In this document: one piece after another, positions 4,745 through 55,136 of the stretch
How the letters are laid out: each line of letters opens with the position of its first letter
Numbering within the stretch: the first letter of the stretch is position 1
Assembly: GCF_902713615.1 (NCBI RefSeq)
Contig: NC_052154.1
Location: forward strand, 81,013,072-81,077,071
Direction of reading: 5' to 3'
Source: Scyliorhinus canicula
Taxonomy: Eukaryota
DNA: 64,000 nt
Position numbers and translations under genes: made by a program
Notes under the pieces: generated by a model
Told to the model about the DNA's origin: nothing
Database searches by the model: none
The model's input: the letters and a program-made list of their open reading frames with translations, nothing else

Positions 4745-6060
4745 GTAAGATTGGAAACAGTTACAGGATTAAGCGCCGGAAAGGCTGCAACCTTAGTTAC
4801 TTGTTAGACATGCATCTGATCAGCTATTAAAACTCGAATATACAGGGTAAATGTGGAGCGTATTTACTCACAATGTCACATCAATGGGAATTAATTAAAA
4901 TAATCAAGGTAGTTTGTCGCTGAAAGAGGGAGAATTTCTCCCTGAAAAGATCTGAAACTGGAGGTTGATGTGCGAACGGCACAAAAACTTAAAGCTGTTT
5001 CTTAGTCAAATTCTTGCCAAATGAAATTAACTTAAAATGGATCAGTATTAGTGGAGACACTTTTATTTAGGACAGTTCCTGTGTGGAACTTCAGCTAATA
5101 TTTTTGAAGGGAATTTTCTCTATGATGCATATTCCTTGTGCATTCATAACTTATTTCTAGCTTATGCAAACATAAACATTTCAGAATACCCTCTTTTACC
5201 TGGATTTACTTTATTCGCATATGACCTTCCCTCTTTTAGTCGTTTGCAAATTGCGGAGTTGAGGAATTGGTTCTAAATCTATTTTGGTGGCAATTGTGGT
5301 TGCAGACCTCTTACTCCAATAAACAAAGTTAATTGAAGTTATCAGCACTAAGGGTGTTGAATAACGGAGGAAATTACAGTGTTAGTACCGAGAATTTGGC
5401 ACTTGATCCGTATGTTACTGAGAACGTGTGTGGCTAGATGGGGGCCGATCAAAGCTACCAGATCTGAAAATCAGGAATCCTAAAGCATATGTGGCATCCT
5501 GATGAAGTTATTAGTGCGGGCAAAAAAACAGGCTGATTGTCAGAGATAGCTGAGCTGGTGTTGCGTGGCGGACTTGTCGTGTCCCATGTTGTTTTAAAAA
5601 AGGGCCCAAAAAGGCGCTTCTTTTTTTTGTACCCGGTCAAATATATTTCAAAGGCTATTTGTTTAGGAGTTGTTTTTCTCTATTTCTCATAAAATTAACA
5701 GAGAGAACAGAGCAGAATCCTACCCCAAAATGGACATCATTGTCCTATATTAATTATACAACCGTTATGTGGAGTTAAAAAAAGAAGCTAACGATCGACA
5801 AGATGGCTTAGCCACCAAAACAGGCTGCCTCGGAAGGTGGAATGCGCCACGGTACACGCTCACGTGGTGCTCATTTTGCCGAGTATATTTTGAGGTTATC
5901 ATCGTCCGGTAATTCAACTTTAGAAATGTAGAATCGGTCCCAAATTTAGAGTAACAATTTTGTGGATCCCTTTCCGTGTCTAAAAGCTAATACTATTTGT
6001 TTCCATTCGGCAATACTTATATGAGCTAATTGATGTGTATCTTTTAATCCCGTATTGTAG

Positions 6061-6167
6061 ATCACAGTTTCCGCAACGTGGTGATTACACGGCTTGTTCT
6101 GGGTTTTTTGGTCATTCTTGGATTGCTGGGTATAATTGTGGACCATGTAACATATGTTCGACTGAAG
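6061..6167 (+). CDS. Receptor gene 1, exon 4: transmembrane exon with Arg (DHSFRNVVITRLVLGFLVILGLLGIIVDHVTYVRLK)
   Basis: Acceptor gtattgtag at 6060, donor AAG/gtgaga. In frame with C1, with a hydrophobic helix carrying an N-terminal Arg. Confidence 0.9.
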
Positions 6168-6571
6168 GTGAGAGGACGTAATTTTTTATTCAATAAACCA
6201 CATTCAAAGTCCATACACAGGTAGCATTGGTAGGCTAGAAATGCGAAATGTGATTCTGCCCGACGTTGTTGACGTAATTTAAGATTAATGGTCCTAAACC
6301 TTGCTGTCAAATAACAGACAACATAAAAGATCGACACTTTTAACACACTTTTCCTGTTTAGTGCTGCTGAAAAGTTACAGGCATGAAACGTTAACCGTTC
6401 CCTTTCCACACATGTAGCCTGAGCAGCCAAGTATTTTCAGCATGTTCAGTTTTTATTTCGAATTTTATTAATTTCCACATTTATTTCAGTTTCGTGCAGA
6501 ATAAGTGAAGTAATAAACATCGAACGTGAATGTTAAGCATTGGCTCCGTGTTCGCTCCTTTCATTAAACAG

Positions 6572-29821: not shown

Positions 29822-30519
29822 TGTAGAAGTGGATTTCATTTGGAACTTCGCTGATAGGGTTAATATAACAGTTCTGAAAAGCTCTGTGAAAGAGATGTCA
29901 ACAGGTCAAGGGATGAAATAAAGGGAGTGTGTCTGACCGGCATCTGTAAAAGCAAAGATGTCAGAAGGTTATGGGATGGAATATAGGGAGTGTGGCATTG
30001 GTACTAATTAATGTTCTGACCCGTATCTGTAAAAGCAGAGAGGTCAAAAAGGCAAAGAATGGAATGAATGGGAACCGTTACTTTATTGCAGAGATAACAT
30101 AATTAAGCTCGTTTGACCAGTTGAAACAAATAAACATTGAAATGTAAAAGGAAGGGCCTTGGAATGAGATAAGCCAGATGGCCATGGGATACAAAAACCT
30201 TTGTATTAATATTGATAGTGACTTGTGCTAATGATTATGTCAAAAATAACCTCCCGACCTCAAAGAATAATTCCATATATGTACATATTCTGGATCCTTG
30301 CCAAATCATAGGTGTATCTAGGAATTTAAAGGGACCTCCCCTAAGCTGCAAGATGTATAAAGATACCGTCCTTATTCTGGGATTTTGGCACTTCTCGAAG
30401 GTGGTTACCCGACTGCTTAGAGATTTGTCCCGGCCGTAAATAAACGAAAATTCGTTACTGACGTGTTCGAGTGTTTTACTTCTGGACTGACGATCAGATA
30501 CGTGAAAGCGCAATTCACA
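29822..30519 (+). repeat. ERV-A 5' LTR
   Basis: TGTAGA...TCACA, TATAAA at 30356, AATAAA at 30439. Four substitutions versus the 3' LTR counted by eye. Confidence 0.97.
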
Positions 30520-30521
30520 TT

Positions 30522-30539
30522 TGGTGGCCCGTACGGGGA
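30522..30539 (+). promoter_or_regulatory. ERV-A primer-binding site, tRNA-Ile(AAU)
   Basis: TGGTGGCCCGTACGGGGA is complementary to the vertebrate tRNA-Ile(AAU) 3' end TCCCCGTACGGGCCACCA. Confidence 0.9.
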
Positions 30540-30780
30540 TCTCCAGAGGGGTCTGCGCAACTAACCGGCGTAATTGACTGAGCTCGTTCAAAGTAGAGGA
30601 CGAATTTGGCCCCCAACGTGAGTAAAAATTTGTTTTCCACCTTGGTATTCGCCTACTACCAGTTTGATCGTTGCTCAGCCTTGCCGTTGGTTTGTCGAGA
30701 AGCCTCTGCGAGATCCAGGTCAGTCCAGCGAACCCGTTTTAAAGAGGGTAAGTGAGTGAACCCTGTGGTTATCGTCTCTA

Positions 30781-31190
30781 GGGGCAGCCTGGGACTGCCG
30801 CTGTGATTCCAGGCAGCGTTCGCTGGAGTTACGGGCGGGGTTGCCAGGACTGCTGGGGGCAGCCTGAGGAGCCGCCGTGATTCCAGTCAGCGTTCGCTGG
30901 AGTTACGGGCGGGGTTCTCAGGATTGCTAGGGGACGGTTAACGGGCTGTGGGCAGCCTGGGACTGCCGCCGTGATTCCAGGCAGCGTTCGCTGGAGTTAC
31001 GGGCGGGGTTGCCAGGACTGCTAGAGGCAGCCTGAGGAGCCGCTGTGATTCCAGGCAGCGTTCGCTGGAGTTACGGGCGGGGTTCTCAGGACTGCTAGGG
31101 GACGATTCCGGGCTGTGGGCTCCGGACGGGACTGCCGCCGTGATTCCAGGCAGCGTTCTCTGGAAGTTACGGGCGGGGTTCTCGGAGCCT
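30781..31190 (+). repeat. GC-rich tandem repeat in the ERV-A leader (5 units, about 70-95 bp)
   Basis: The core gtgattccaggcagcgttcgctggagttacgggcggggtt is repeated five times. Confidence 0.9.
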
Positions 31191-31377
31191 ATCCCCCGGT
31201 ATAACCCATACCTTCACCGAAGAATTTTACCTACTTACCCCTTAATAGCATTGGTGTCCTGGGTCCTGTGTTATTAAGGAAGTGAAGTAAGCTAATAACC
31301 ACTTAAAATCTGGTCTTCTTGAGTTGTATTAGCTGTTTAAACTCGGCTGCTTTCCTTGTCTTTCTCCAGCAGGCTGC

Positions 31378-31410
<33 letters not shown>

Positions 31411-32226
31411 GTTGCTGTTGCAGAGTGCTGCTACTTCTGCTCCCTGGGTTTATATTCTCTTTCGAAGAGTTATTAAGTTTTAACGACTGTATTGTATATG
31501 GGCTTGTTTCACTTTGATAGTTTAAAAGTATCTTTGATGTAAACATCTTACTACAACTAATTATTCATTTCAGGCATATCATCTCCTCTCAGATTTGATT
31601 TAAAAAATGCTTTTGTTTCAATAGTTAACTTTTATTTCTGTGATTTCAAATCGTTTAATTTTCCAATTGTCCCCAGTTCATAACTTTGCCTTTGATTTTG
31701 ACTTAAATGTTGTTTCTCGTAGCCAGGTCATCTCCAATTTTCTTTTAATTAACTTGATGTTTGTAGAATTTTACCCCTTAAATTGACACTAAATTCGACT
31801 GAGCATCTTCCATTCTTTCCAGCTGTTTACTAAGAGAGTTTATTTCAATTAAGGTGTGAAACTTTGCTCTTAGCTGTATGCTAAAATTTAACTTGGTTGT
31901 GACTTGAAAGACTTGCCTGTTTTAAACATTCGTCACTTAATGCAATTGAAACTCTCATCCATGCTTTTTCAGATGCTTTCCGAGATAGTTACATTCCATG
32001 AAGGTGTGAGCCATTGTTTTAGCTTACCACATGAAGCCTGTGTGTCTGCTGAGGCCTGCTTGTGAGCAAGTATCTGCATTTTATAACCCTGCTCTTTGCA
32101 GCTGCTATTAACCTTTTGTGGGATCTTTCCCTGTACCCTCTCAAACCAGATATTGCCAGACATTCATGTTTCAAATGACACATTTTTCTGTATTATCAAG
32201 AACCCACCGCAAAGAAATTAATTGCC

Positions 32227-32577
32227 TTGTGGAGGGAATACTGTCAGTCATTGAAAGATGCATCTATACTGGCTAGCTGGCAGGAAAATGCCTCAAAATT
32301 GGGTATTGGCCTCACAAAAGGGGGAATTGTTAAAACAGTAGAGGTCTTAAAAAGGGAATGTAAAGAATATAAGAAACGTAAGAATGCTAATCCTACCCTG
32401 GCGCCGGTCAGCAATGCGAAGCAAGGTTGGGAGGAGGGGGACGATGGGGATGAGGAACATCTGTTCAATTGCGGGGGACGTCAGAAGCCCCCACAGCCCC
32501 CACAGCCCCCACAGCCCCCACAGCCCCCACAGCCACCTCCGCCACCGCCCCTGGAATGTGATCAGTATTATGAGTAA
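32227..32577 (+). pseudogene. gag: ERV-A gag remnant (matrix-like and Pro-rich region)
   Basis: Position after the leader, basic helix and a PPQ/PPP run. Capsid, nucleocapsid, protease and RT core are absent. Confidence 0.6.
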
Positions 32578-32719
32578 CTCAGTATGTTCAGAACTACATT
32601 GGTCTCAGAATAAACAGATAAAGGATTTGTGCTGGGCAGTTTCGAAACTGCTGCGTTGAAATTGACACTGCATGGCTCCGCAGGGTCCTAGTGCCCGCTG
32701 ATCACAAACAGTCACTAGC

Positions 32720-33338
32720 AGAACCGCCTCAAGGAGGCACTCCTCCAGGCCCCTGCCCTTGGTCGACCCTTATATGATCGCCCTTTTCAGCTCTATTGCA
32801 CAGTCCTTGCCGACTGCGCCACAGCTGTCCTGACCTAACGCCACGGCGACCGCTGTCGCCCGGTTGCATACTACTCCTCTAAACTCGATCCGGTAGCCCT
32901 TGGCTATCCTATCTGTACCCAAATTCTTGCAGCTATCTACAACAGCCTGCAATCGGCTGCTAATATTACCCTCCAACAAGATGTCACTGTCTATAGTTCC
33001 CATTCTGTTACGGCCCTTTTGGGACAGCTACAGACTCAGCATCTCACGATGGCTCGTCAGAATAGATATGAGATTGCTCTCCTTAATAACCCAAAGGTCC
33101 AGTTTGCCCACTGCACCACTATCAACCCTGCTAACTTTTTGACGCATCCTCCCACAGACATGCGCGACCCAACTCATGACTGTCTGCAACTGTTGCAAGA
33201 AGTCTCCTCGGTTCGAGACGACCTCTCCGATATACCCCTCCCAAGTGCAGATTGTTCCTTTTTCACCGATGGAAGTTCTTCCGTCGGCGAAAGGGGGGAT
33301 AGACAATCTGGCTATGCAATCATCGATCAAGACGGTGA
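32720..33338 (+). pseudogene. pol: ERV-A pol remnant: connection domain and RNase H N-terminus
   Basis: LKEALLQAPALG, PVAYYSSKLDPVA, FFTDGSS. One TAA, and the RNase H core is deleted at about 33338. Confidence 0.9.
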
Positions 33339-34748
33339 TGGAAAAACAGAGGATTTCTAACCTCCGCTAGTACACCCATCTCACACCAGCAGTTAGTAAC
33401 CCAGTTATTGCAGGCCCTTATGCTCCCAGACAAGATAGCGGTGATAAAATGCGCAGCGCATACAAAAGGCACAGGACTGGTGGAAACGGGCAACAGGAGA
33501 GCGGTCGAGAAGGCAAAAGAAATTTCTAAATCTGGCAAACTAACGGTGCCTAGAATGATGAGGCAGACTAAAACCCCCTCGGGAAAGTCCCCCTCTGAAA
33601 AACCTATGCCAACCATTGCTGACATAATCCAAATGCAGGAGGACGCTCCTGCAACTGCTGTAAATATGTGGAAAAACTTAGGATGTATATATGATATCGA
33701 AAATAAGCTGTGGGTCACCCCGGTAGGACAAACATGTATGACCGATGCATTAGCAGCCTGGGTGACCGAATGTGTACACTTTGCAACTCACTGTGGAGCT
33801 CGTGCCACAGGGGACATATTGTTAAAAAGCTGGTGGCACCCACGACTGCAAGAAATGGCCCAACAAATTAGCAGTCGGTGCCTAATCTGTCAACAGCACA
33901 ACCCCGGTAAGGCCGTCCCCTGTGATCCTGGCACAACCCCCTTACCTGAGGGTCCATTTGAGACCCTACAAATGGATTACATTGAGTTGGAAAGATGTCA
34001 ATGCTATAAATATGTGTTAGTCATTGTGGACACTTTTAGCAAATGGATCGAGGCCTACCCGACTACGGATAACAAGGCCTCGACAGTAGTTAAGGTGTTA
34101 ATGCGAGAAATTGTTCCGCGATTTGGAATTCCAGCCCGGCTGAGCTCTGCCAATGGTCCCCACTTCATAGGTCAAATCAATAAGGAATTCTGTGCTCTGC
34201 TAGGAATAAAGCAACAGTTTCATTGTGCCTACAGACCACAAGCCGCTGGAGTGGTGGAAAGGGCTAATCAGACTCTAAAGACTAAACTCGCTAAACTACA
34301 AGCAGACACTGGGGCCACTTGGCTCAAACTCCTGCCTTTAGCACTCTTCCAGCTACGTGCCACCCCCGCAGGAAAAACTCGCCTAAGCCCAGCGGAAATA
34401 CTATATGGCAGACCCTTTCGAACGCCTTGGGACAGCAGTGTTCCACGGAATGTTCAATTCCATTACATGACTACCGAGATGGCTAATTATATATTAACAC
34501 TAACTAGAATTTTGAAAGGATTACACTCCCGAGTTCGTGCCACCCAGGAAGAAGTCCCCTCCATTACTCATGACGTCTCCATCAACCCTGGGGATTATGT
34601 CCTAATTCAAAATTGGACATGTAAAGGTTTGGAACCTCGATGGGAGGGTCCCCTACAGGTTCTACTCACTACCCCCACTGCAGTCAAAGTGGAGGGCCGG
34701 AACGCATGGGTACATATGCACCATTGTAAGTTAATTAAGTATCCATGA
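33339..34748 (+). pseudogene. pol: ERV-A pol remnant: RNase H C-terminus and integrase (open frame)
   Basis: KCAAH..GN, HHCC (HFATH..CLIC), QMDY, SSANG (second catalytic Asp changed to Ala), VVERAN, WEGP. Confidence 0.93.
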
Positions 34749-34792
34749 TGTTCTAAACTTTTCCTTTAAGTCCTAGGAGCACGAGTACCAGG

Positions 34793-35341
34793 ATGAAGTC
34801 CCTCTTCACCGTCACAATACTCGCCACCCTGCTCTCTCTCGCTGCATCCGGAAGAAGGAGATGCCCGTATGGAAGCCGACGTCCACCCCTGTGCCGAGAA
34901 GGAACCCCACGATGTGGAACAACAACAGGTCTCCGATGGATCACCACCCCTATCAACACCTGCCCGACCACCGTTCCTCCCGATGACCAGAAGCCCCGAT
35001 TCCTGATTACGTACATGGTTCTAATGTACGATCGCCGCACATGCAGGTGGAACCACCGGTGCATTGATAAGGACAGGGTACAAATTTTACCATCAAGGAC
35101 TACTCACCCCTACTCGCCTTCCAGAAGGAAGCGGGCAACGCACCATGTAACGGCAAATTCTTTTCTGTTTATGTCCTATGTCTATGCTAAGAAAGTGGGT
35201 GTCTCCTCTTGCTGGGTATGTACACAGGTCCCGACCCATGCCCATGGAAGCGTTCCCTTGATATCTGTTCCTTTCTCGATCGAACAGACGGCTGCATGGG
35301 TTATATTCCAGACAGTTCAGAGAATATCACGCGTCTGGTAA
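34793..35341 (+). CDS. env: ERV-A env 5' ORF: signal peptide, Cys-rich domain, RRKR furin site, NSF..CWVC SU start
   Basis: 182-aa ORF directly after integrase, truncated by an internal deletion and frameshift near 35300. Confidence 0.8.
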   Translation: MKSLFTVTILATLLSLAASGRRRCPYGSRRPPLCREGTPRCGTTTGLRWITTPINTCPTTVPPDDQKPRFLITYMVLMYDRRTCRWNHRCIDKDRVQILPSRTTHPYSPSRRKRATHHVTANSFLFMSYVYAKKVGVSSCWVCTQVPTHAHGSVPLISVPFSIEQTAAWVIFQTVQRISRVW

Positions 35342-35670
35342 CCCATATCAGAGATGGAGTACAGCGCTTGCGACTCGCCGGTCAGGCTGACTGGTGGAGC
35401 TGGATGTGGTCCAATTCTTGGGCCACTTACCTATTCCATGGGCTCATTATCTTCGTTACCATCTGTTTGTTGCTCTGTATCATAGCTACTGGTGTGAAAT
35501 GCCTATCCAACCGTTTGGGTGCCACTGCATTACCACAGATGCTTCAGAGATCCGCCCTAGACGAAAAAGAAACACTGGTTCCACCTACCCCTGACCTATA
35601 TGAGGAAGTGGCATCCTGCTGGAGCCTAGTAGAGGAGGAGTACCTCCGCCTCGCTCTCATTTCCATCTAA
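35300..35670 (+). pseudogene. env: ERV-A env TM-subunit remnant
   Basis: YIPDSSENIT, W-rich membrane-proximal region, TM LIIFVTICLLLCII. Out of frame with the 5' ORF. Confidence 0.85.
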
Positions 35671-35704
35671 AGTATCCTGAGTGTTATGTGATCAAGGAAT
35701 GATC

Positions 35705-35715
35705 AAAGGGGGGAA
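35705..35715 (+). promoter_or_regulatory. ERV-A polypurine tract
   Basis: AAAGGGGGGAA immediately precedes the 3' LTR. Confidence 0.9.
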
Positions 35716-36413
35716 TGTAGAAGTGGATTTCATTTGGAACTTCGCTGATAGGGTTAATATAACAGTTCTGAAAAGCTCTGTGAAAGAGATGTCAACAGGT
35801 CAAGGGATGAAATAAAGGGAGTGTGTCTGACCGGCATCTGTAAAAGCAAAGATGTCAGAAGGTTATGGGATGGAATATAGGGAGTGTGGCATTGGTACTA
35901 ATTAATGTTCTGACCCGTATCTGTAAAAGCAGAGAGGTCAAAAAGGCAAAGAATGGAATGAATGGGAACCGTTACTTTATTGCAGAGATAACATAATTAA
36001 GCTCGTTTGACCAGTTGAAACAAATAAACATTGAAATGTAAAAGGAAGGGCCTTGGAATGAGATAAGCCAGATGGCCATGGGATACAAAAACCTTTGTAT
36101 TAATATTGATAGTGACTTGTGCTAATGATTATGTCAAAAATAACCTCCCGACCTCGAAGAATAATTCCATATATGTACATGTTCTGGATCCTTGCCAAAT
36201 CATAGGTGTATCTAGGAATTTAAAGGGACCTCCCCTAAGCTGTAAGATGTATAAAGATACCGTCCTTATTCTGGGATTTTGGCACTTCTCGAAGGTGGTT
36301 ACCCGACTGCTTAGAGATTTGTCCCGGCCGTAAATAAACGAATATTCGTTACTGACGTGTTCGAGTGTTTTACTTCTGGACTGACGATCAGATACGTGAA
36401 AGCGCAATTCACA
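35716..36413 (+). repeat. ERV-A 3' LTR
   Basis: Direct repeat of 29822-30519. Confidence 0.97.
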
Positions 36414-36477
36414 TTACCAATGATCGAATAGATATTTTCTGGGACCTGGGTCACTTCAAGCAGAGGATGGGTAGCAA
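36414..36477 (-). pseudogene. Receptor gene 2: 5' part of the VJ exon
   Basis: Acceptor ttctcttctatag, then ATHPLLEVTQVPENIYSIIG. It joins TNIAFDC in frame once the ERV and one TSD are removed. Confidence 0.9.
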
Positions 36478-44049: not shown

Positions 44050-44802
44050 TATATAGTATATTGCATCTGTGTTCACTATGGCAAAGGATGATATTGGTAT
44101 TAAAAGCATGAGAGGGATTGTGATATAATTGACTAGATTAGCTTTGGAAGGGAGGAGGTGGTAGCGGTTTTAGCATGCTAAAAAGTGGACAGATCCCCAG
44201 GCCCAGATAAGATGTATCCTAAGCTGCTTTGTGAGGCAAGGGAGGAGATTTCAGGGTCTCTGAGGCTAATTTCTATACACTCTCTGGCCTCAAGAGAGGT
44301 GCAAGAGGATTGGAGGGCAGCTAATGTGGTACCATTATTCAAGAAGGGAATTAGGGGGAAAACTAGAGAAATACAGGCCATTAAGTTGAACTTTAGTGGT
44401 AGGGAAAGTATTGGAAAAATGACAGATAGACAGCATTAAATATCACTTGGAGAGGCAAGGTTTAAAAAAGGTTAGTTGGCATGGCTTTGTCGGGGAACAT
44501 GTCTAACACATCTGATGGTTGATGTACTCCACAAGGAGTCAGCAAGGCTTGTAAGATCTGCGGGAGGGGAGTTTTTTTTTGCGGGGGGGGGGTGGACTGA
44601 TCAAGAAAGTAAGAGCTGATGGGATCCAGAGAAATTATGAAGACTGGATCCAAAATTGGCTTTGTGGCCGGAGCCTGATAGCGATGGTCGAAGTTTGCTT
44701 TTGTGATTGGAAGCCTGTGTCTAGTGGCGCAAAGCATATATTGGTGTTGGGTCCCTTGCTCTTTGTGGTGTACAGTAATAATCTAGATGTGAACTTGGGA
44801 GG
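44050..44802 (+). mobile_element. Degraded CR1 ORF2 fragment, host of ERV-B (continues at 54725-54900)
   Basis: SPGPDKMYPKLL..EDWRAANVVPLFKKG. YSNNLDVNLGG continues as MTNNCMDDTNVGG across the ERV. Confidence 0.85.
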
Positions 44803-45767
44803 TGTTGCACGTTTTGCTATGGGTGCAAAACGCGTTTATTGGGGTGTATTAACTTGCCTGTGTTAAAGGCCGTGTGCTTAACACCACTAGGCTCTGTCTA
44901 TGTATTTTTCAGCTCAGGAGTCGCCAGTTGCCGTATAGACAACTCACAAAATATCTCAAGGTCAGGTTCAAAGTAATAAAACGATACACCGATTAGTAAG
45001 TTCCAAACGATCAATATTTATTATACAATTATAATAAATACGCATGCACACACTAAGGGACTAAGCTATGACTAAACTAAGCAATCAGAATACTTAACTA
45101 CACAGGAACAGGCAAGGTCAGGGAGCGAGGCCTTCGTCCCGGTCTTGGTCTGCAACCTTCAGAAAGCGTGCTGGTCACTGGGGGTCTAGCGTGCTTGGTT
45201 CGCGTAGCGAGCGTCGTATTGGCACTTACGGTTCGGCGGCTGGTGCTCAACGGCTGGAGTCAGGATACACATTGGAGGTCTTGGTCAAAGCCGGAGCACG
45301 AAACAACAGACAGGACCATGTGTGGGGGTCTATTTTTATAGGGGTCCCCAATGTCCTTCCCTCTTCCTGGGCGGGCTTTACCTTCAGGTATCGATTGGAT
45401 CGCTTCCAATCGATATCTTTTGAATTCCTCCAATGTGAGGGTCTTTCTCGATGGTGGGGGCGGTTTCTATAGTGGATACTTCTGGTGCCGCTCTGTCTGG
45501 ACATCCACTTAAAGTATCTTATTCAAACCCAAATGTTGCCATTGTGTGTGCCTAGATCTAGACTGCCTCATTAGTATGTAAACGTTCTGCCATTATCACC
45601 TTTGGTTGGAGATCTTCCACCTGGCCAGAAACTGGTTTTGCTGCTTGCAAAATGCTAATGAGTGTTTGCAGGCTGTTTGCCTTGGCTATACTGTTTTTCC
45701 CTACAGTCTTAGCGATTCTCCATTTTGTTTGATTCAGTGTCCATTTTAGGTGGCTACAGTGGCTACA
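44803..45767 (-). repeat. ERV-B 3' LTR
   Basis: On minus: TATAAAAATA (45340-45331), GTAAGT donor (45229-45224), AATAAA (45022-45017). Five substitutions versus the 5' LTR counted by eye. Confidence 0.97.
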
Positions 45768-45777
45768 TTCCCTCCTT
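45768..45777 (-). promoter_or_regulatory. ERV-B polypurine tract
   Basis: AAGGAGGGAA on minus, adjacent to the 3' LTR. Confidence 0.9.
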
Positions 45778-46137
45778 GTGATCCTCACAATCAAAATATT
45801 GTGAAGGATCACCTATGTACGTTGCCTTGAGTGCATCTGGGTTGCCTTCTTTGTGTTCCCTGACCTCGGCAAGCTCCTGAGCGTCTACTCTGTCCTTAAA
45901 CTATGGGAAGAAAAATTTTTTAACTGACATCTCTACTTGGCGCTATGTCAAAGGGGACATGCATTACCACAAACGGGAACCTCTACCTATCTCAATTATC
46001 CTTATCTTACCTTAAACATTTCATTACAGACTAAACCTCATCCATTCATACCACATCACATAACATTTCCTGACTCGGCAGTCGAGTTCAGGACAATATA
46101 ATACATGGGTACATTTTTTTATTCATTACACAGTGCT

Positions 46138-46482
46138 TTATTCATTTATGGGCTGGGGGGATTGGTGAAAGCCGAAGATAGGAGATTGAATTCCATAGAC
46201 GGTTGAGGGGCAGGAACGGGAGGCTCTCCTCTTCCACTTCCTCAACCTGAGGGTCTGTACAAGTATGGCGAGGATCGCAATCACTAGCAGTGATTCAATC
46301 ACGTATGACATGGAGTACCATGTCATAAATTTTGTGCACCAGGTCTGAACCTCACTGATCAGAGCTGAGCACGGGGGAGTTGCTGTAAGTGAAACATTTA
46401 CGGTGGGGGTTGTGGGGGAAACGTGTCTTGCTTCCACACAAACAAATATAACATTTAAAAGTAATAAGTGGGCTTCCATCAT
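46138..46482 (-). CDS. ERV-B accessory ORF: 114-aa type I membrane protein in the env position
   Basis: Signal peptide (LLLLNVIFVCVEA), NVS sequon, Cys38/Cys49, TM YVIESLLVIAILAILVQTL and polybasic RLRKWKRR. Sense to gag-pol, uninterrupted. Confidence 0.75.
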   Translation of the reverse strand: MMEAHLLLLNVIFVCVEARHVSPTTPTVNVSLTATPPCSALISEVQTWCTKFMTWYSMSYVIESLLVIAILAILVQTLRLRKWKRRASRSCPSTVYGIQSPIFGFHQSPQPINE

Positions 46483-47539
46483 CTTCTCTTCGTTTTTCTT
46501 CTTTTCTTCCTCCTGTATGGCCGATCCTTGCTGTGGTCCCTGTTTCGTCCTTCGAAAGCTATGGGATCAAGCACAGTATCTGTCAATACAGCTTAATATC
46601 CGTACTTGTTAGTGTATCTGTCTTTCAATTCCAATTGACCCATTAAAAATGACTGGCCAAGTCACACCCTGTGACTCCCCTCATTTTTTTTTTCAAAAGC
46701 GAATTTAATGAACACAATACACCAAACAACTCTCCTCCTGCGAGCCATCTCGCAGGCTTTGCTCATTTACCATCCGAATGTTCCTGGATGTAAATAGCAT
46801 GTGGGATGGCGGCCTAAGGGCTGCCTAACGAAAAATGAAAACAAATTTGAAATGAAAGGTCGAATGGGTTGCGTATGGGCCGCTACGGGTACGATTTGAA
46901 TGGGATCCCCGGGTAGGGCGTGCTGTGCCATACCCGAGCTTGGCTGACCAAAGTGGGTTCTCAGACAGGGCGGGTCCTCAGTGCCGTTTGTCCACTGCCT
47001 GAGTAACCTGGAGTAAACGGGCAAGAATGTGTTTATCATGGATTTGCAGCCTCTATTCGCCGAATAGAGGGGCACCTAAAAACAATGGGGGAGCCAAGAT
47101 GCTCCTTCATCTGAAAACAGGGAAGAAGTCGTGAACCGTGTCGGTTCACCAGAGGAAACAACTGAAGTTCTCAGAGGTTTCGGCAGACAAGCTAACGTGC
47201 TTGCGAGGTGGTCGCATTCCTTACAACTGAAAAGATCTCCAATCAAACGGTTGGTTTGCGAACCGAAGTTCTCAAAGGTATTTGCGGACAAGCTAACGGG
47301 TGTGTGAGGTGGTCACAATCTTTTCAGCTGAAAAGATCTCTAATCAATCTCGTAACATATTAACAAACAAACATAAACTGACAAACAAACATGCGTGCAG
47401 GTTCCATCAGAAAGGACATCGCTTCCCTCAAGCGGTTCCTATCTTACATCATCTGGACACCTCACTTTTCCTCTGTCTCTGTGAACAGGGTCACAAAGGG
47501 GTTGCCGTATCGGGATTCAGACACCGTGTCGTCCTGCTC

Positions 47540-50500
47540 TCACGGATCCCACACCCTTGTGTGGATCAGGCATGATATCTTTGAATTGTGTGACCGGGGG
47601 TCACTGTCATCGTTGCGGACAAGTCGGTACGAATTGTCCCTGTGCCAGAGTGTTGGGTCCAAAAGTGAATGGGTATTGTCGGGGTCGTCGGGGTCGGGTG
47701 GTGGGTCTGGGTTTTTAATGTAAGTGACTTCCATGGGGTCACTGTAGTCGGGGTCATAGTCGCTGCTATGTGGGCTGTAGTGTGGTGTGCCGTGGCTGTC
47801 CTCAGAGTCAGTGTCTGTATCGCTGTCTCTGCTGCGGCAGCTTGTGGGCGTTTCGGGGCGTGGTCTGTCATGGTCAGTGGGCGGAGTCGTGGGCGAGTCC
47901 GATGAAGAACTGGTCTGTGAGGGGGATGGTGGAAACGTGTCTCTAGTGGGTGGGGTGAGGTGTTCTGCTGCGTCTAGCAGGACATGGTGTGCATGGTTGG
48001 CCTGCATTCCATATGCCTTTAACTGGTTGATATGGAACCACGCGGTCTTACCATTAGGATATTTTATCCTATAAACCGAGGGGCTAATTTTATCCGAAAT
48101 TGAGTATGGTCCGGAATATTTTGGTGCCAAAACACTGCTGGGGTTGTATACAGATAGCATTACCTGTTGCCCAACCTGGAATTCTGTGGGGTGTACGGTC
48201 TTGTTAAAACAAGCTGTGCGTTGTTTACGGCGTTTCCCTAGCTGAACTGCGGCTGCAATCTGTGCAGACCTCACAGTCTCAACCAAGTCTTTAACCGTCT
48301 TTTCGTGTGTGAGGGCCGTCACTTCGGGGCTAGTCATGTCCAGTCCTAAAAGGAATTCTGTACCTTTCATAGGGCGTCCGGTCATGAGTGTGTGTGGTGT
48401 GTATCCTGTGGAAGTGGAAACTGTATTTCTGATGAACATTAATGCAAATGGGAGCACTGAATCCCATGTGGAGTTGTTCTCTTGAACCATTTTCCTAAGC
48501 GTGGATTTTAGGGTCCGATTCATGCGCTCTACAATCCCGCTGGACTGTGGGTGATACGCAATATGAAAATTTTGTTTTATTCCAAATATTGTCAGGACAT
48601 TCTTCATGACCCGTCCTGTAAAGTGAGATCCCTGGTCCGAATCAATGCTACGGGGTAAACCCCTTCTCGTGAAGATGTGGTGGGTCAGGATCTTTGCAGC
48701 TGTCTTAGCTGTATTCGTTCTAGAGGGGAATGCCTCTACCCATTTGGTAAAGGTATCGATGACCACCAGAACGTATTTATAGCCATTCCTACAAGGGGGC
48801 AATGGGCCTATAAAGTCGATCTGGAGGTTTGTCCAGGGGCCATTAACTGGTCGAGTATGCCGAAGTTGTGCCTTTTTAGAATACCTTTCCGGGTTATTCT
48901 GGGCGCAAATAAGGCAATTCTCGATGTAGTGACCTACATCTGTCCTTAGGTTAGGCCACCAACAGAGCTGCCTGAGGTGCCTCGTGGTTGCGTCGGTCCC
49001 TTGGTGCCCGTGTCCATCATGGAACAAAGCAATCATTTCATTCCTGTCCTGCTGCGGGACCACATAAAGCTGATCCTTTATGATCACACCCTCATGTGTG
49101 GTCAGTGCGTGTCTGAATTTATCATACTGTGGCACGAAGTTGCCTTTGAAAATCTCCCTGAGATCCTCATCTTGCTTTTGTGCCTCTACTAAATCTTTAA
49201 TACTGGTCTGTGAGACTTGGACTGCGCTCACAGGGGCGCTAGCTGGTGCACTAGCTGGGGGTGTCCATAAGTGTCCTCGCCTGGAACCTGCCTTAGCCAG
49301 TGCGTCGGCTTTTACATTCCCTGGGGGGGATGACCTATGGTGGCTTCTTACTTTGATAATGCCGAAGGTCCTGTCCTTCGCTTTCTCTAAAATGTGTTGG
49401 AGTAAAGGGGCTGATGGAAGGGGTTTCCCATCTGCGGAGACAAAACCTCGTGTCCTCCACAGGGGCAGAAAATCGGTTAAACTATTGCAGACATATAAAC
49501 TGTCCGAATATATGTCCGCTGGGCTGGGGAAAGAATCGGGGTGGTCCACTATATAAGCTATGGCCGCGAGCTCTGCTGCCTGCGCGCCTAAGTGTCCCGG
49601 TAATTTTAAAGCTATCTCCTCGAGAGCGCGCCCCTGCGCGTCCTCTACATAGATGCCGCATCCTGTGATACGCTCACCTTCTAAAACTGTGGATGAACCG
49701 TCTACGTAAATCCTCAGTGGTCCACACGTGTCTGTGGGTTGGGGACTTTGTCTGGGGGTCCCTATCTTCCTGGGGGGTGTCTTTGCTATAAAGGGTCCTG
49801 TGTTATGTAAGGGGGCTACAATTTCACATTCATGGGGCTGTCCTGGGTATTGGAGGTTGTCGGCTAAAAATGTGTGTGTGCGGGTCCGTTTACCTGTAAT
49901 GTCCCGTCCTTGTAAAAGTAGTGTCCACCTAGCTGCCCTAATCTGGCTAACTGAACCGTCCTTCAGTCGACCGTCTAGGAGTAACTGTGTGGGGGTGTGC
50001 TCGGTCAAAATGGTGGTGGGGTTGAGTCCGGTAATGTACGAAAAATATTGCACTGCCCAGAAGACAGCAAGGAGGTGCCTCTCGCAGGCTGAAAATCCTT
50101 GTTCAACTGGGTCTAACAGTCGGGAGGCATAAGCCACTGGTCTTAGCTGCTCGTGCCCTTCCTGAAGTAACACGGCCGAGAGGGTCAGATCTGTGCTTGC
50201 TACCTCTATTGCATATGGGGAGAGTGGGTCTGGGACTTGTAGCGCGGGTGCTGCGCTAAGGGCTTTCTTTAACTCTTCCACAGCCTCTGTATGCTGCGGA
50301 AGCCATTCCCAGGGGGCTCCTTTCTTAAGGAGGTCTGAGAGTGGGGCGGCTTTTGTCGCGAATCCGTCGATGTGGTTCCGACAATAACCAACCAGTCCTA
50401 AGAACGACCGGAGGGCTGAAACATTCTGGGGAAGGGGCAATTTGACAATCGAATCAATTCTTTTGAATTCGATCTCGCGTTTGCCGTGTGTGATGACTGT

Positions 50501-51697
50501 TCCCAAATACATCACTTTACTTTCCAAAATCTGGGCCTTTCTTGGGTTAACTTTACATCCAATCTCGGTTAAAAGTTCCAGGAGTTCGGCCAGAAGCGTA
50601 ATGTGCTCTGCCTTTGTGTCTGTCTGCAGTAGTAGGTCGTCTACATACTGTACCAGACATTCGGGGCGGGAAAATTTTTCTAAGCCATTCGCCAGCTGTC
50701 GGTGGAAAATGGAGGGGGAATTGTGGAATCCTTGTGGAAGGCATGTCCACGTATACTGTTGTGTTTTAAAAGTGAAGGCAAATTTGTACTGGCACGCCTT
50801 TGCCAATGGGATTGACCAGAAGCCATTGCTAATGTCCAAAACCGTGAAATATTTGGAGTTGAGTCCCTGCTTGAGCATGGTCTCGGGACTTGTTGCTACC
50901 GTGGGGGCTACTGCTGGGGTTACTTTATTGAGTTCCCGATAATCAATGGTCAGACGCCATGATCCGTGGGGCTTTCTCACTGGCCAAATAGGGGCATTAT
51001 TGGTCGAGGCTACTGTTCTAAGCACACCTTGCTCCAATAAGCTACCTATCACTTTCTCTATTTCTACCTCTGCTTCTAGGGGAAATCTATATTGTTTTTG
51101 TGGTCTGGGGTCAGGTCCGGTAACGTGAATTTGTCCAGCCATTCTGCCGCAGTCATGCCGGTGACTGGCAAATGCTGTCCTGTGTTTATTCAGTACTGCC
51201 TTAACTTGTCTGTCCGTGTTTAGTGTAGTCGGGTCAAATGAGTAGTCTCCTACTGCACTAATCCTGTTAGCGTACTCTCCTACTGTGAGAGTAGCGGGTG
51301 CTCTGTCCGATCTTGCCATTCGCCAGACACACTGGTTCACTGGGTCGAACGACAGGCTATGGGCATTCATAAAATCTATCCCTAGGATGTGTTCTGCTGT
51401 CCGGGGAAGATTTACTAAAACAACGGGGTGTTTTGTGGAAATGTTCCCTAGCTGGATTGCTACGGGTGCTGTAATGTGTCCCTGCTGCGAGTGTCCGGTG
51501 AACCCGCTAAGTGTGATGGTGGAGGTGGTCGGCCACGTGTCTGTGTGTGCCGTGGTGGTGGAGTTAATTGTGGTGCGGGAGCCTCCTGTGTCCCAAAGTA
51601 ACTCTATGGGCTTCCCTCTTAACTTTGCCGTGACTACCGGTCTTCCTGATGGATCCCATAGTGTGTCACAGACCCAAGTGGGGGAGCCCGAACACCG
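47540..51697 (-). CDS. pol: ERV-B pol: protease, RT, tether (degenerate RNase H), RNase H, integrase, acidic/Pro-rich tail (1385 aa)
   Basis: LLWDTGGS, LPQGFHNSP, YVDD, tether PVAYASRLL..CERHLLAVFWA, RNase H YVDGS..AELAA..YSDS..KADALA, IN HHCC, QIDF/SDQG/VERMN and GPY. No internal stop. The ORF track starts at internal Met 51370. Confidence 0.95.
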   Translation of the reverse strand, partial: RCSGSPTWVCDTLWDPSGRPVVTAKLRGKPIELLWDTGGSRTTINSTTTAHTDTWPTTSTITLSGFTGHSQQGHITAPVAIQLGNISTKHPVVLVNLPRTAEHILGIDFMNAHSLSFDPVNQCVWRMARSDRAPATLTVGEYANRISAVGDYSFDPTTLNTDRQVKAVLNKHRTAFASHRHDCGRMAGQIHVTGPDPRPQKQYRFPLEAEVEIEKVIGSLLEQGVLRTVASTNNAPIWPVRKPHGSWRLTIDYRELNKVTPAVAPTVATSPETMLKQGLNSKYFTVLDISNGFWSIPLAKACQYKFAFTFKTQQYTWTCLPQGFHNSPSIFHRQLANGLEKFSRPECLVQYVDDLLLQTDTKAEHITLLAELLELLTEIGCKVNPRKAQILESKVMYLGTVITHGKREIEFKRIDSIVKLPLPQNVSALRSFLGLVGYCRNHIDGFATKAAPLSDLLKKGAPWEWLPQHTEAVEELKKALSAAPALQVPDPLSPYAIEVASTDLTLSAVLLQEGHEQLRPVAYASRLLDPVEQGFSACERHLLAVFWAVQYFSYITGLNPTTILTEHTPTQLLLDGRLKDGSVSQIRAARWTLLLQGRDITGKRTRTHTFLADNLQYPGQPHECEIVAPLHNTGPFIAKTPPRKIGTPRQSPQPTDTCGPLRIYVDGSSTVLEGERITGCGIYVEDAQGRALEEIALKLPGHLGAQAAELAAIAYIVDHPDSFPSPADIYSDSLYVCNSLTDFLPLWRTRGFVSADGKPLPSAPLLQHILEKAKDRTFGIIKVRSHHRSSPPGNVKADALAKAGSRRGHLWTPPASAPASAPVSAVQVSQTSIKDLVEAQKQDEDLREIFKGNFVPQYDKFRHALTTHEGVIIKDQLYVVPQQDRNEMIALFHDGHGHQGTDATTRHLRQLCWWPNLRTDVGHYIENCLICAQNNPERYSKKAQLRHTRPVNGPWTNLQIDFIGPLPPCRNGYKYVLVVIDTFTKWVEAFPSRTNTAKTAAKILTHHIFTRRGLPRSIDSDQGSHFTGRVMKNVLTIFGIKQNFHIAYHPQSSGIVERMNRTLKSTLRKMVQENNSTWDSVLPFALMFIRNTVSTSTGYTPHTLMTGRPMKGTEFLLGLDMTSPEVTALTHEKTVKDLVETVRSAQIAAAVQLGKRRKQRTACFNKTVHPTEFQVGQQVMLSVYNPSSVLAPKYSGPYSISDKISPSVYRIKYPNGKTAWFHINQLKAYGMQANHAHHVLLDAAEHLTPPTRDTFPPSPSQTSSSSDSPTTPPTDHDRPRPETPTSCRSRDSDTDTDSEDSHGTPHYSPHSSDYDPDYSDPMEVTYIKNPDPPPDPDDPDNTHSLLDPTLWHRDNSYRLVRNDDSDPRSHNSKISCLIHTRVWDP

Positions 51698-53445
51698 TCA
51701 GTCCGTTCCGTCCACATTGGTCTGTCCTGACTGGATCCCTATACTATGGGTCGGTTTTGTTTTATTCCGGTTCAGAGTGCCTGTCTGCTGGCCTCTCTGC
51801 GATCTCTGGGGTCCATTACATTCCTTAGCCCAATGTCCTAACTGGCCACAGTTGTAGCATTCCTGCGACTTCTGTGGAGGGCTGCTCTTTCCTTCATTCA
51901 CCCATGCGGGTTTTTGGTGCTCTCTCACTGCCTGTATGTCTGCTGCAGCCTGAGCTTCTTCTGGGGATTTCACTCTACTCTTGCCCTGAACTGATTGCTC
52001 CCAAGCGCGGGACAATCTTTTCAGGACCCACTTCTCATTATGGGCCTCCTCTGAGGGGTCATAGCTGTTGCAAGCGCTCTGTCCTGCTTCTGTTGCATGT
52101 GAAATTATGGTGCGCGTCCATTTAACCATGTTTTCACGGTTCAAATGGGCTCTATCTAAATCGCCAAATACTGCATTAAAATGGATCCACAGCCTTCCGG
52201 CGAATGCTGTGGGGTGCTCGGTTTTCTTCTGCCGGCACTTATTCAGTCCTTCTACGGGGTCACCTCGATTATACCCTATGGCATCTAAAATGGAGGTGTG
52301 CATTTCCTCTAGGGTGCCTCCGCCAACGTTCTGTGGGTCGGGAGGGCTGCTACAACCGATGGGTCTAAACTCAGAACTGTGAGTTTAACCTGCTCTCTCT
52401 CATCCAGGCCGTACATGGTAGCCTGTTGCTTTACCTTTGCGAAAAACTGGTGGGGGTCTGCGGTGGGGAGAAACGGAGTGATCTTCTCACACGCGTCCCT
52501 TAGTTGGGTTACAGTTAAGGGGCTGGTGTAAGTTATATCGGGTGCGCCTTCTGTGGTCGCTTTTCTCTGGGTGGTGACTGGATTCATTGGAATGGTAACG
52601 AGCTGATCTGTGGGGGGTTGGGGTGCTTGCCTTTTCTGCTGCGCTGCTGGCGCACATGTTCCCTGAACATAACGCTGCGCTGTCTCACTTAACTCTTTCC
52701 AGTCTGGGGCATTCTCCTCATCTAACTGTGTTCCAAAGATGCTTTGAAACCCATTTTGTACCGAAAGCAGCGATTGCAGCTCTGCAATCTGCTTCCTGCA
52801 TTTCGCGTGATCTACTGTACTTTGCCTTTGTTCTGTGGTTGCAGCATGGAGTGCTCTCAAAGCTGCTTTAAGGTCAGAGCATTGCCTCTGCAAAGCCTCT
52901 ACCTGCTTCTCTGATTCTTCTCTTATCAGGACGGCACGTTGCACGTCCTGATAGGCCTTTACGTACTGGGTCTGGGAACTGCTGAGATGGGCTAGACAAG
53001 ACTGATGTGCCCTCTTGGCATCATCTACCTCTCTACCTTTCTCTGCCAACTTCCCTCTTAGATCCATATTTTCCTTCTCGATGTCCCTGACATCCACTTT
53101 ACTCATCCTATTCCTTTCTTCTAGTTCTGCCCGGAGCGTCTGAACGACCTCCTCTGTGCCTCGCAATTGTGCCAAACAGGACACAATCGCCATCGGCTTA
53201 CGTGCTTTACTCATGTTTTTCTTGTGAATTTGAGAGAGGTTCTCCCACCAAGTACGTCCTATACTTCCGGGACCTGTCTCCTCATTCAAACAAAACTCTT
53301 TCCAAAGGGGCCATCCCTTTCCTTGCAGATACTTGCGGAGTTCCAGCTCCCACATGGGACACTGACCTACCCTGCTACTGCTGCTGGTCGCTGCGACCAC
53401 AAACCGTTCTGGGTTCATGAGGCGTTCCATTGCCTGCATGGCCAT
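51698..53445 (-). CDS. gag: ERV-B gag (about 582 aa reconstructed, one 1-nt frameshift near 52341)
   Basis: ORFs 52309-53445 and 51698-52303 join as LPDPQNVGGGTLEEMHT if one C is restored. Long coiled coil and a single CCHC knuckle CYNCGQLGHWAKEC. Confidence 0.88.
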
Positions 53446-53736
53446 TTTCTCTGACTCTCTTTAAATTTAGGACAGGGGGTGTTGAGGTTATGTCTCACGA
53501 AACGGGTAAGGCTTACTCTATGTTCCGTTCACAAAACTACCGAAAGTTTGTCGCAACAAAAATGCTTTCAGGTTTTCCTTACAACCCTGTTAGTACGCAT
53601 GCACTAAACACACTTCCGAATTACGCTTATTGCTTTGAACACCTTGAATATTTGTGATTTCTTTCCGTTTTCTTTACCAGATTTCCAATTCAAATTTCAG
53701 GGTCCTCGACGGAGTGGGGGTACCACTTGTAACCGT

Positions 53737-53754
53737 GTCCCGGCGGAGTCGCCA
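53737..53754 (-). promoter_or_regulatory. ERV-B primer-binding site, tRNA-Arg(UCU)
   Basis: TGGCGACTCCGCCGGGAC on minus is complementary to the vertebrate tRNA-Arg(UCU) 3' end GTCCCGGCGGAGTCGCCA. It lies 5 nt from the LTR. Confidence 0.88.
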
Positions 53755-53759
53755 CTAAA

Positions 53760-54724
53760 TGTTGCACGTTTTGCTATGGGTGCAAAACGCGTTTATTGGG
53801 GTGTATTAACTTGCCTGTGTTAAAGGCCGTGTGCTTAACACCACTAGGCTCTGTCTATGTATTTTTCAGCTCAGGAGTCGCCAGTTGCCGTATAGACAAC
53901 TCACAAAATATCTCAAGGTCAGGTTCAAAGTAATAAAACGATACACCGATTAGTAAGTTCCAAACGATCAATATTTATTATACAATTATAATAAATACGC
54001 ATGCACACACTAAGGGACTAAGCTATGACTAAACTAAGCAATCAGAATACTTAACTACACAGGAACAGGCAAGGTCAGGGAGCGAGGCCTTCGTCCCGGT
54101 CTTGGTCTGCAACCTTCAGAAAGCGTGCTGGTCACTGGGGGTCTAGCGTGCTTGGTTCGCGTAGCGAGCGTCGTATTGGCACTTACGGTTCGGCGGCTGG
54201 TGCTCAACGGCTGGAGTCAGGATACACATTGGAGGTCTTGGTCAAAGCCGGAGCACGAAACAACAGACAGGACCATGTGTGGGGGTCTATTTTTATAGGG
54301 GTCCCCAATGTCCTTCCCTCTTCCTGGGCGGGCTTTACCTTCAGGTATCGATTGGATCGCTTCCAATCGATATCTTTTGAATTCCTCCAATGTGAGGGTC
54401 TTTCTCGATGGTGGGGGCGGTTTCTATAGTGGATACTTCTGGTGTCGCTCTGTCTGGACATCCACTTAAAGTATCTTATTCAAACCCAAATGTTGCCATT
54501 GTGTGTGCCTAGATCTGGACTGCCTCATTAGTATGTAAACGTTCTGCCATTATCACCTTTGGTTGGAGATCTTCCACCTGGCCAGAAACTGGTTTTGCTG
54601 CTTGCAAAATGCTAATGAGTGTTTGCAGGCTGTTTGCCTTGGCTATACTGTTTCTCCCTACAGTCTTAGCGATTCTCCATTTTGTTTGGTTCAGTGTCCA
54701 TTTTACGTGGCTACAGTGGCTACA
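53760..54724 (-). repeat. ERV-B 5' LTR
   Basis: Direct repeat of 44803-45767. Confidence 0.97.
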
Positions 54725-55136
54725 GGAGGTATGACCAATAACTGCATGGATGACACGAACGTTGGCGGTGCAATAAACAGCGATGAGAAAAGCTTTGGAT
54801 TACAGCACGAGAGAAACGGGCTGGCCAGATGGATAGAGAACTGGCAAATGGAATTAAAACCCGAAAAGTGTGAGGAATGGGTGGTAGGTGGGGGAGGCCC
54901 ATACAGCTGGTGACACTCTGCAGAACCAGGAAAGAAGGCGAAGCCTGACACAACCAAAGAGAGTGTGTTAGTCCGTTACTCTAGCTTAGTCTGGTATTGT
55001 CTCTTGTTGTCCCTGAAGACTTTGCGGAAATTATACCTAGATTTGCTACATATGTCAGGGTCACCTATCTTGAACGCCTCAGACCTGACCTTCAGTAGGG
55101 AGTGAATCTTCCAGTCAAATCATGGTTTCCAGTTAA

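Follow-up and report, generated by a model that had tools for sequence, protein, structure and literature searches.

What an endogenous retrovirus (ERV) without an envelope gene does with a small membrane protein encoded in the env position is the question raised by a locus of the catshark Scyliorhinus canicula. The DNA analyzed, referred to here as the window, is a single stretch of 64,000 nucleotides. On its minus strand, positions 46138 to 46482 hold a frame of 114 codons and a stop; the plus strand is closed there. The initial annotation had described a clean 114-aa open reading frame (ORF) in the env position of a provirus. This was confirmed, and every motif that it listed is present in the protein encoded by the window copy, which we call the miniprotein.

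The host of the gene is a 9.9-kb provirus resembling snakehead retrovirus (SnRV) on the minus strand (44803 to 54724), bounded by long terminal repeats (LTRs) of 965 bp each that are 99.5% identical to each other. Its 5' LTR (53760 to 54724, TG...CA) and 3' LTR (44803 to 45767) are flanked by a 5-bp target-site duplication at 54725 to 54729 and 44798 to 44802. A primer-binding site, presumably of the tRNA-Arg type, and a polypurine tract were recognized by sequence at 53737 to 53754 and 45768 to 45778, respectively, both on the minus strand. The gag gene (51698 to 53445, minus strand) shows weak coiled-coil matches and one CCHC zinc knuckle; the Gly2 myristoylation signal is absent. In the window copy, gag is divided into two frames by a break near 52.3 kb and ends in a TGA in frame with pol. 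The latter (47540 to 51697, minus strand) is a single open frame of 1385 aa with protease, reverse transcriptase (RT), tether RNase H, RNase H, and integrase domains. The miniprotein gene occupies the env position, downstream of the pol stop (47540) and ahead of the 3' LTR (45767). Its frame, 142 codons from stop to stop, is the longest sense frame listed in this interval of 1.8 kb. The window holds a second provirus at 29822 to 36415 on the plus strand, with 700-bp LTRs that are 99.4% identical, a broken env, and an integrase with an MLV-type C-terminal domain. Env genes resembling that of this second provirus occur elsewhere in the genome, with open frames of up to ~570 codons.

Several non-coding features accompany the gene. 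A conserved block at 46750 to 47050 (minus strand) contains predicted hairpins at 47003 to 46962 and 46825 to 46808. Together with a second block at 47400 to 47500 (minus strand), in which two donor-like GT sites lie just past the pol stop, it is conserved at the DNA level to the same extent as the miniprotein gene. The post-pol spacer also carries two 87-base direct repeats of 82% identity (47160 to 47347), in a region that is variable among copies. On the 3' side of the gene, there is an RNA hairpin at 46068 to 46093 (minus strand). Among 42 copies, 7 of the 16 pairs predicted in this stretch showed double changes in at least two copies, and the alignment fold gave a z value of -12.9 versus column shuffles. 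In many subfamilies, it is immediately preceded by AATAAA, and it may serve in RNA export, in packaging, or in the control of polyadenylation. The idea of an internal poly(A) site behind the gene was rejected, as read depth does not drop beyond it. An Rfam scan gave no match at gathering level.

The closest RT relatives of the provirus are frog and coelacanth elements, with 52 to 57% identity. A tree of 119 RT sequences comprised that of the window provirus and 118 of 120 matches, without a named SnRV or Loki reference. In this tree, the provirus clustered with the frog and coelacanth elements (support of 0.87). Elements of gamma and epsilon type fell elsewhere, as did a clade from ray-finned fish, which we took to be lokiretroviruses in a tree lacking a named reference for them. 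A search for the SnRV reference sequence yielded two distant matches (28 to 31%). SnRV is described as having an in-frame gag-stop-pol arrangement, a non-myristoylated coiled-coil Gag, and a single zinc finger (PMC2717909), and all three were found in the catshark element. We call it SnRV-like on the basis of this layout and these Gag features, with the nearest RT relatives in frogs and coelacanth. The two elements differ in that SnRV has a full Env and four accessory ORFs (PMC12193657), whereas the catshark family has no env-sized frame and carries the miniprotein only. Among the SnRV-like ERVs compared, chicken Ovex1 and elephant-shark CmiERV lineage I, the same difference applies to Ovex1, which has an 873-aa ORF3. 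The catshark element has a dual RNase H in common with lokiretroviruses (PMC7947760), and relatives are annotated as NYNRIN-like, but it lacks their F-like env, which is related to paramyxovirus F. The gene model of the closest frog pol relative extends, by eye, into an apparent signal peptide and an Ig V-like domain; this extension may stem from a host exon fused to the model, or it may be a further membrane gene captured at the place of env.

To what extent the miniprotein belongs to the element was assessed from its copies. A genome protein search with the miniprotein gave at least 150 matches of 89 to 100% identity from 8423 first-look candidates. Two further genome searches with divergent versions of the gene likewise gave only lower-bound numbers of matches, and the family comprises hundreds to thousands of copies. 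A further set was picked by frog integrase and not by the miniprotein, with 60 of at least 150 matches retrieved. A miniprotein homologue was present in all 60 (47 to 95% identity), and its frame was unbroken in 52. The longest sense frame after pol in this set was only 200 codons; therefore, none of the 60 copies has an env, and with the window element equally devoid of an env-sized frame, the initial description of the provirus as env-less was correct. Thirteen of the 49 measurable LTR pairs were identical (range, 93.6 to 100%), and long gag and pol frames were found in 22 of the 60 copies, which indicates a recent expansion of the family. Subfamilies of greater age, with identity as low as 40%, display the same order of pol, spacer, gene, and LTR, and in two sets drawn from them the frame was unbroken in 22/30 and 18/30 copies.

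Outside these copies, relatives were scarce. A HMMER search of 1.84 billion representative proteins returned four matches, two gene models from S. canicula and two from S. torazame, all with longer N termini that are absent from the open frames of the genomic copies. No homologue was detected among 5.8 billion proteins, the profile of a 15-member family alignment matched one protein only in the protein database, and viral and metagenome contigs contained no relative of the miniprotein. In the databases searched, the family is limited to two catshark species. The C-terminal end of an S. torazame HEPACAM2-like gene model consists of the miniprotein's membrane helix and basic cluster, which suggests a host gene splicing into the element. 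Far from being an accident, the miniprotein frame is a genuine gene of an env-less ERV family that is large and was active recently.

Selection on the gene was evaluated by codon models using 48 distinct unbroken natural copies. The dN/dS ratio (omega) was 0.26, with 2 x delta lnL of 188 versus omega = 1. The ratio differed between regions: it was higher in the signal (0.39) and the stalk (0.45) than in residues 47 to 88 (0.11) and the tail (0.15). Within this copy set, the RT segment yielded 0.11, the gag segment 0.17, and integrase 0.05, the last being biased low since the copies were chosen by integrase. The core of the miniprotein (residues 47 to 88) therefore equals the RT segment and lies below the gag segment. 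Disruption or lack of constraint in sister copies, which the initial annotation had weighed against its own proposal, was not observed, given the 52 of 60 unbroken frames and this overall omega. In a counting test, changes common to several copies gave pN/pS values of 0.19 to 0.20 (core, 0.10; RT, 0.04; gag, 0.15). Private changes gave 0.36 to 0.68, drifting toward neutral, and RT and gag followed the same pattern. Since shared changes are constrained and private ones drift toward neutral, selection acts through replication of the element and not on one host-tamed copy. As controls, the adjacent non-coding block gave 0.8 to 1.4 and two wrong frames gave 1.0 to 3.4. Net frameshifts occurred in 1 of 46 copies within the gene, a whole-gene count that leaves out 14 of 60 copies as too divergent or partial, versus 32 of 59 in the non-coding block; in a set picked by 3' DNA, the number was 4 of 29. 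The low omega and the rarity of frameshifts relative to the controls thus place the constraint on the protein, during replication of the element.

Two oligo-dT RNA runs, for which tissues were not given, covered the gene almost wholly in one orientation. Read depth in the bin from 46067 to 46365 was 22.5 and 36.9, compared to 0 and 2.3 in the opposite orientation. Provided that the libraries follow the usual stranded design, the covered orientation is the sense strand of the provirus. Reads with at least 99% identity to the window copy numbered 129 of 1427 and 264 of 4414. Most were 90 to 99% alike and, therefore, derived from sister copies. The family is transcribed across the miniprotein frame in both runs, as expected of a working gene by the initial annotation, which had also suggested looking for splice junctions into the ORF. 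Among the joints listed from the two runs, none led into the gene, a weak negative given that divergent copies map poorly. A likely splice-acceptor region at 46559 to 46616 (minus strand) was identified by the conservation of motifs across copies. It contains a branch-point-like motif near 46612 and AG sites at 46581, kept in 45 of 45 copies, and at 46560, kept in 98%; these conserved sites precede the start codon by ~100 and ~80 bases. Conservation of these motifs suggests that a spliced message may be produced through the acceptor.

The architecture of the miniprotein was derived from its sequence and from 62 distinct unbroken proteins that are 40 to 95% identical to it, a set partly picked by gene similarity. 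These proteins range from 111 to 129 aa and have a single strong hydrophobic helix. A signal (residues 1 to 18) is predicted from hydrophobicity and from an A-x-A-type site in older copies; if it is cleaved, the mature ectodomain measures ~40 aa. Next comes a stalk rich in S/T/P (content of 43 to 54%) with an N29 sequon (NVS, 29 to 31). It is followed by a membrane-proximal aromatic helix (47 to 60) with the pattern W48-x3-F52-x2-W55-Y56, a membrane helix (~57 to 78) carrying Glu63, a basic cluster (79 to 89), and a tail with Tyr96 and S-P-I-F-G-F. Asn29 and Ser31 are each present in 62/62, and this invariant glycan site points to the secretory route. Within the outer aromatic helix, Trp48, Trp55, and Tyr56 (62/62 each) and Cys49 (60/62) are conserved, as are Ser57, Ser59, and Tyr60 (61/62 each). 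Gln76 is invariant (62/62), and Glu63, singled out in the initial annotation, is near-invariant (61/62). All 62 proteins have a juxtamembrane basic cluster of at least three K/R in 15 aa, including Lys82 and Arg85 in every case. In the tail, Tyr96 and Phe103 (both 62/62) and Pro101 (61/62) form part of a motif, Y-x-hydrophobic-x-S/P-P-I/L-F, that was found in 58/62.

Other features vary within the family. The Cys38-x10-Cys49 loop noted at the outset is present in the window copy but is not conserved: Cys38 was found in 32/62, in younger subfamilies only, and a second stalk Cys is absent in 27/62. The oldest subfamily has this second Cys at another spacing and keeps the Glu in 16/18. The membrane residue Cys72 occurs in 33/62. 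Amphipathic moments were 0.47 to 0.65 for the outer segment (62 proteins) and 0.53 to 0.76 for the inner one (4 proteins), as absolute values with no chance baseline. An immunoreceptor motif (ITAM) was found in 0/62, as the initial annotation had said of the window copy, and the myristoylation motif MGxxxS/T also in 0/62. One abundant subfamily gained a short C-terminal extension with T-x-Y-x-x-L, which is ITIM/ITSM-like or a sorting signal and likely accounts for the YxxPhi matches found in 21/62. Residue conservation suggests a functional core composed of the outer aromatic, membrane, and basic helices and the tail motif, on a variable glycosylated stalk. An AlphaFold model (mean pLDDT of 66, pTM of 0.32) showed, at low confidence, the signal helix and one long helix from 39 to 90. 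The structure search envisaged in the initial annotation, performed with this model, returned 0 matches at E<=0.001. PDB sequence searches returned 0 matches and, in one case, 1 chance match at E 1. In an Atlas search, every score was below 0.9 and concerned generic small membrane proteins. A homodimer prediction scored 0.02, which counts neither way.

The acidic residue in the membrane helix had led to a comparison with CD3zeta and FcRgamma and to the proposal of an adaptor lacking an ITAM that acts as a decoy, silencing Arg-bearing receptors such as the NKp30-like gene in the window. The miniprotein does share with these adaptors an acid near the outer end of one helix, a Tyr three residues before it, and a short ectodomain. 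A zeta-family search found the genome's own two zeta-type membrane exons, both above the cut-off, and matched no ERV copy. The Tyr and a downstream Leu-Arg align with these two host helices, and to this extent the resemblance held. The family profile, by contrast, scored only 1.1 to 1.3 bits against them. The acid-anchored register, which was chosen after the fact, gave 6/26 and 5/26 identical positions, and its score was reached by 353/20000 (1.8%) and 965/20000 (4.8%) shuffles. The acid is Glu in the miniprotein and Asp in the host helices. The zeta Cys position, four before the acid, is occupied by Ser59 in 61/62. The Tyr/Thr pair of zeta is its dimer pair; the corresponding positions in the miniprotein are Ala69 and Leu/Ile74. 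The stalk is longer and glycosylated. Pfam TCR_zetazeta (PF11628) matched 0/15 alignment members at E<=10, and DAP10 matched none of the 15. Membership in the CD3zeta/FcRgamma family was rejected on the scores of ~1 bit and the missing zeta cysteine. Absence of an ITAM would suit a decoy, Cys49 could link a dimer, and DAP10 was listed at 0.82 in one Atlas search, but this score is too low to count as a lead, and the list for an older copy did not include DAP10. A decoy would, moreover, act in lymphocytes, whereas selection probably runs through germline copying. Taking both sides together, we consider the decoy hypothesis highly improbable. The window does contain an exon for an Ig V domain (1291 to 1683) and one for a membrane helix that has an Arg close to its outer end (6048 to 6221), both on the plus strand; we take them to be NKp30-like, and they seem to be the receptor gene invoked as gene 1. 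Proximity to this gene, at 40 kb, means little in a family of hundreds to thousands of copies.

The other hypothesis put forward initially was a minimal cell-cell fusogen replacing Env, modeled on the reovirus FAST proteins. In common with p10, p13, p14, p15, p16, and p22, the miniprotein has fewer than 200 aa, one membrane helix with a basic cluster behind it, an amphipathic motif, and a low-confidence, probably disordered, tail. FAST proteins are stated to have neither signal peptide nor glycosylation (PMC3952855) and to carry fatty-acid sites (PMC3701659). FAST membership fails on the predicted signal, the invariant glycan site, the absent myristoylation motif, and a cystine loop that is optional; the alternative to myristoylation, a p10-type loop with a palmitoylated Cys close to the membrane, is not general either, since both the loop and the membrane Cys are subfamily-specific. 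PDB, fold, and Pfam searches did not connect the miniprotein to a fusogen by sequence or by fold. What survives is the looser idea that the miniprotein replaces Env. It is our best reading, held tentatively and at less than even chances: the miniprotein would stand in for Env in spread from cell to cell, as an analogue of Drosophila sORF2 and not a FAST member.

According to a preprint (bioRxiv 10.1101/2025.03.14.642691), an env-less LTR element, MDG1, passes from soma to oocyte via sORF2, which localizes to protrusions carrying capsids into the oocyte. Both systems combine an env-less LTR element with a short single-pass protein whose N terminus and small ectodomain lie outside and which has amphipathic segments as well as a basic patch next to the membrane. 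This match in size, topology, basic cluster, and amphipathic segments with the description of sORF2 and FAST proteins was counted in favor of an Env substitute. Differences are also evident. The host of the catshark gene is a vertebrate retrovirus with dual RNase H, and that of sORF2 is a metavirus; the catshark gene follows pol, in the env position; and the miniprotein has a predicted signal, an invariant N-glycan site, and a membrane Glu, without a myristoylation motif or a sequence link to sORF2.

Acting as an Env substitute, the predicted single-pass glycoprotein would take over the membrane step, and capsids would pass to a neighboring cell, presumably a germ cell. A message spliced through the conserved acceptor might be translated into a protein that loses its signal by cleavage, is N-glycosylated, and reaches the cell surface. 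Clustering could then be mediated by the aromatic membrane-proximal helix and Glu63, and the basic helix and the Tyr96 tail motif may recruit non-myristoylated Gag or actin adaptors, so that capsids would cross where membranes touch or fuse locally. Because it lacks a myristoylation signal, Gag has no obvious membrane anchor of its own, which was counted for this reading. A glycosylated membrane protein would also be of little benefit to a purely intracellular copier, yet the miniprotein is kept, in the place of env, in every lineage sampled. On the other hand, a glycosylated S/T/P-rich stalk would tend to hold membranes apart, against fusion. High copy number combined with env loss usually reflects copying inside one cell, with no cell-to-cell step needed.

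The latter consideration bears on a rival reading, in which the miniprotein is a minimal Env remnant, comprising signal, membrane-proximal region, anchor, and tail, that anchors Gag internally during copying within the germ cell. Its very high copy number, env position, acceptor-like site, aromatic membrane-proximal stretch, and non-myristoylated Gag are all compatible with such an origin, and the long cytoplasmic tail of SnRV Env (PMC12193657) would fit as well. No env-bearing ancestor was found among the loci searched, and in the 20 gamma/epsilon-type env loci examined, out of 78, the family profile produced no match below E 1. An F-type env search of the genome returned no match anywhere and was thus without a positive for comparison. 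A longer ectodomain occurs in no sampled subfamily. An SU/TM ectodomain, furin site, fusion peptide, and heptad repeats are absent from the miniprotein, which has a stalk of ~40 aa and no Env-family match of note. We regard an Env remnant as distinctly unlikely.

The strong conservation of Glu63 (61/62) and of Tyr96 and Phe103 (62/62), with an omega of 0.15 for the tail, would suit an accessory antagonist, in which, within the producing cell, Glu63 would grip a host membrane protein and the tail would re-route that protein, so as to remove a restriction factor or an immune ligand. Vpu and adenovirus E3 membrane proteins are the relevant comparison, and a cleavable signal, a short glycosylated stalk, a charged membrane residue, and a conserved tail motif are typical of such antagonists. 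Weak Pfam matches to the adenovirus E3 glycoprotein were obtained for 1 to 2 of the 15 alignment members (E 0.016 to 0.31), but these are at noise level. There is no family-wide sorting signal, YxxPhi being confined to 21/62 and dileucine to 0/62, and antagonism leaves the exact env placement in every sampled copy unexplained. It appears unlikely, if less so than an Env remnant. Concerning origin only, a captured and shortened host gene related to TMEM156 was considered, since weak Pfam matches over the membrane region were seen in 11/15 members (best E, 0.0018). All of them fall below the curated cut-off, and a genome search with the TMEM156 family gave no match above it; of the 12 loci inspected, 11 proved to be the ERV gene itself. 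We consider this origin highly improbable.

Returning to the Env substitute, its most far-reaching form is that a vertebrate retrovirus lineage dropped Env and evolved an unrelated, signal-bearing miniprotein of a new fusogen class, which would carry capsids from cell to cell into the shark germline, converging on sORF2 and driving ongoing amplification to hundreds or thousands of copies. We offer this as a speculation that is rather doubtful. What the sequences of the copies indicate is a real, new membrane-protein family, limited to catsharks in the databases searched and under strong selection in an env-less retrovirus. In the literature consulted, with subscription papers mostly outside it, neither this family nor any vertebrate retrovirus with a gene like sORF2 was described.

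Env-less ERVs are usually regarded as cell-confined retrotransposons. Genome screens for shark ERVs and for invading ERVs demand an env gene (PMC4422223, PMC10435555), and such screens would therefore overlook the catshark family. Our findings indicate that a vertebrate retrovirus devoid of env can retain a membrane gene with a core under about the same constraint as gag and RT; some membrane step, therefore, matters to the copying of the element. With a protein of this small size and a map of its conserved residues, either cell-to-cell transfer or host antagonism is directly testable. If host antagonism is true, the partner of the miniprotein would reveal a germline defence in cartilaginous fish. 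If cell-to-cell transfer is true, the Env-independent route of flies would extend to vertebrate retroviruses, via a new protein family.
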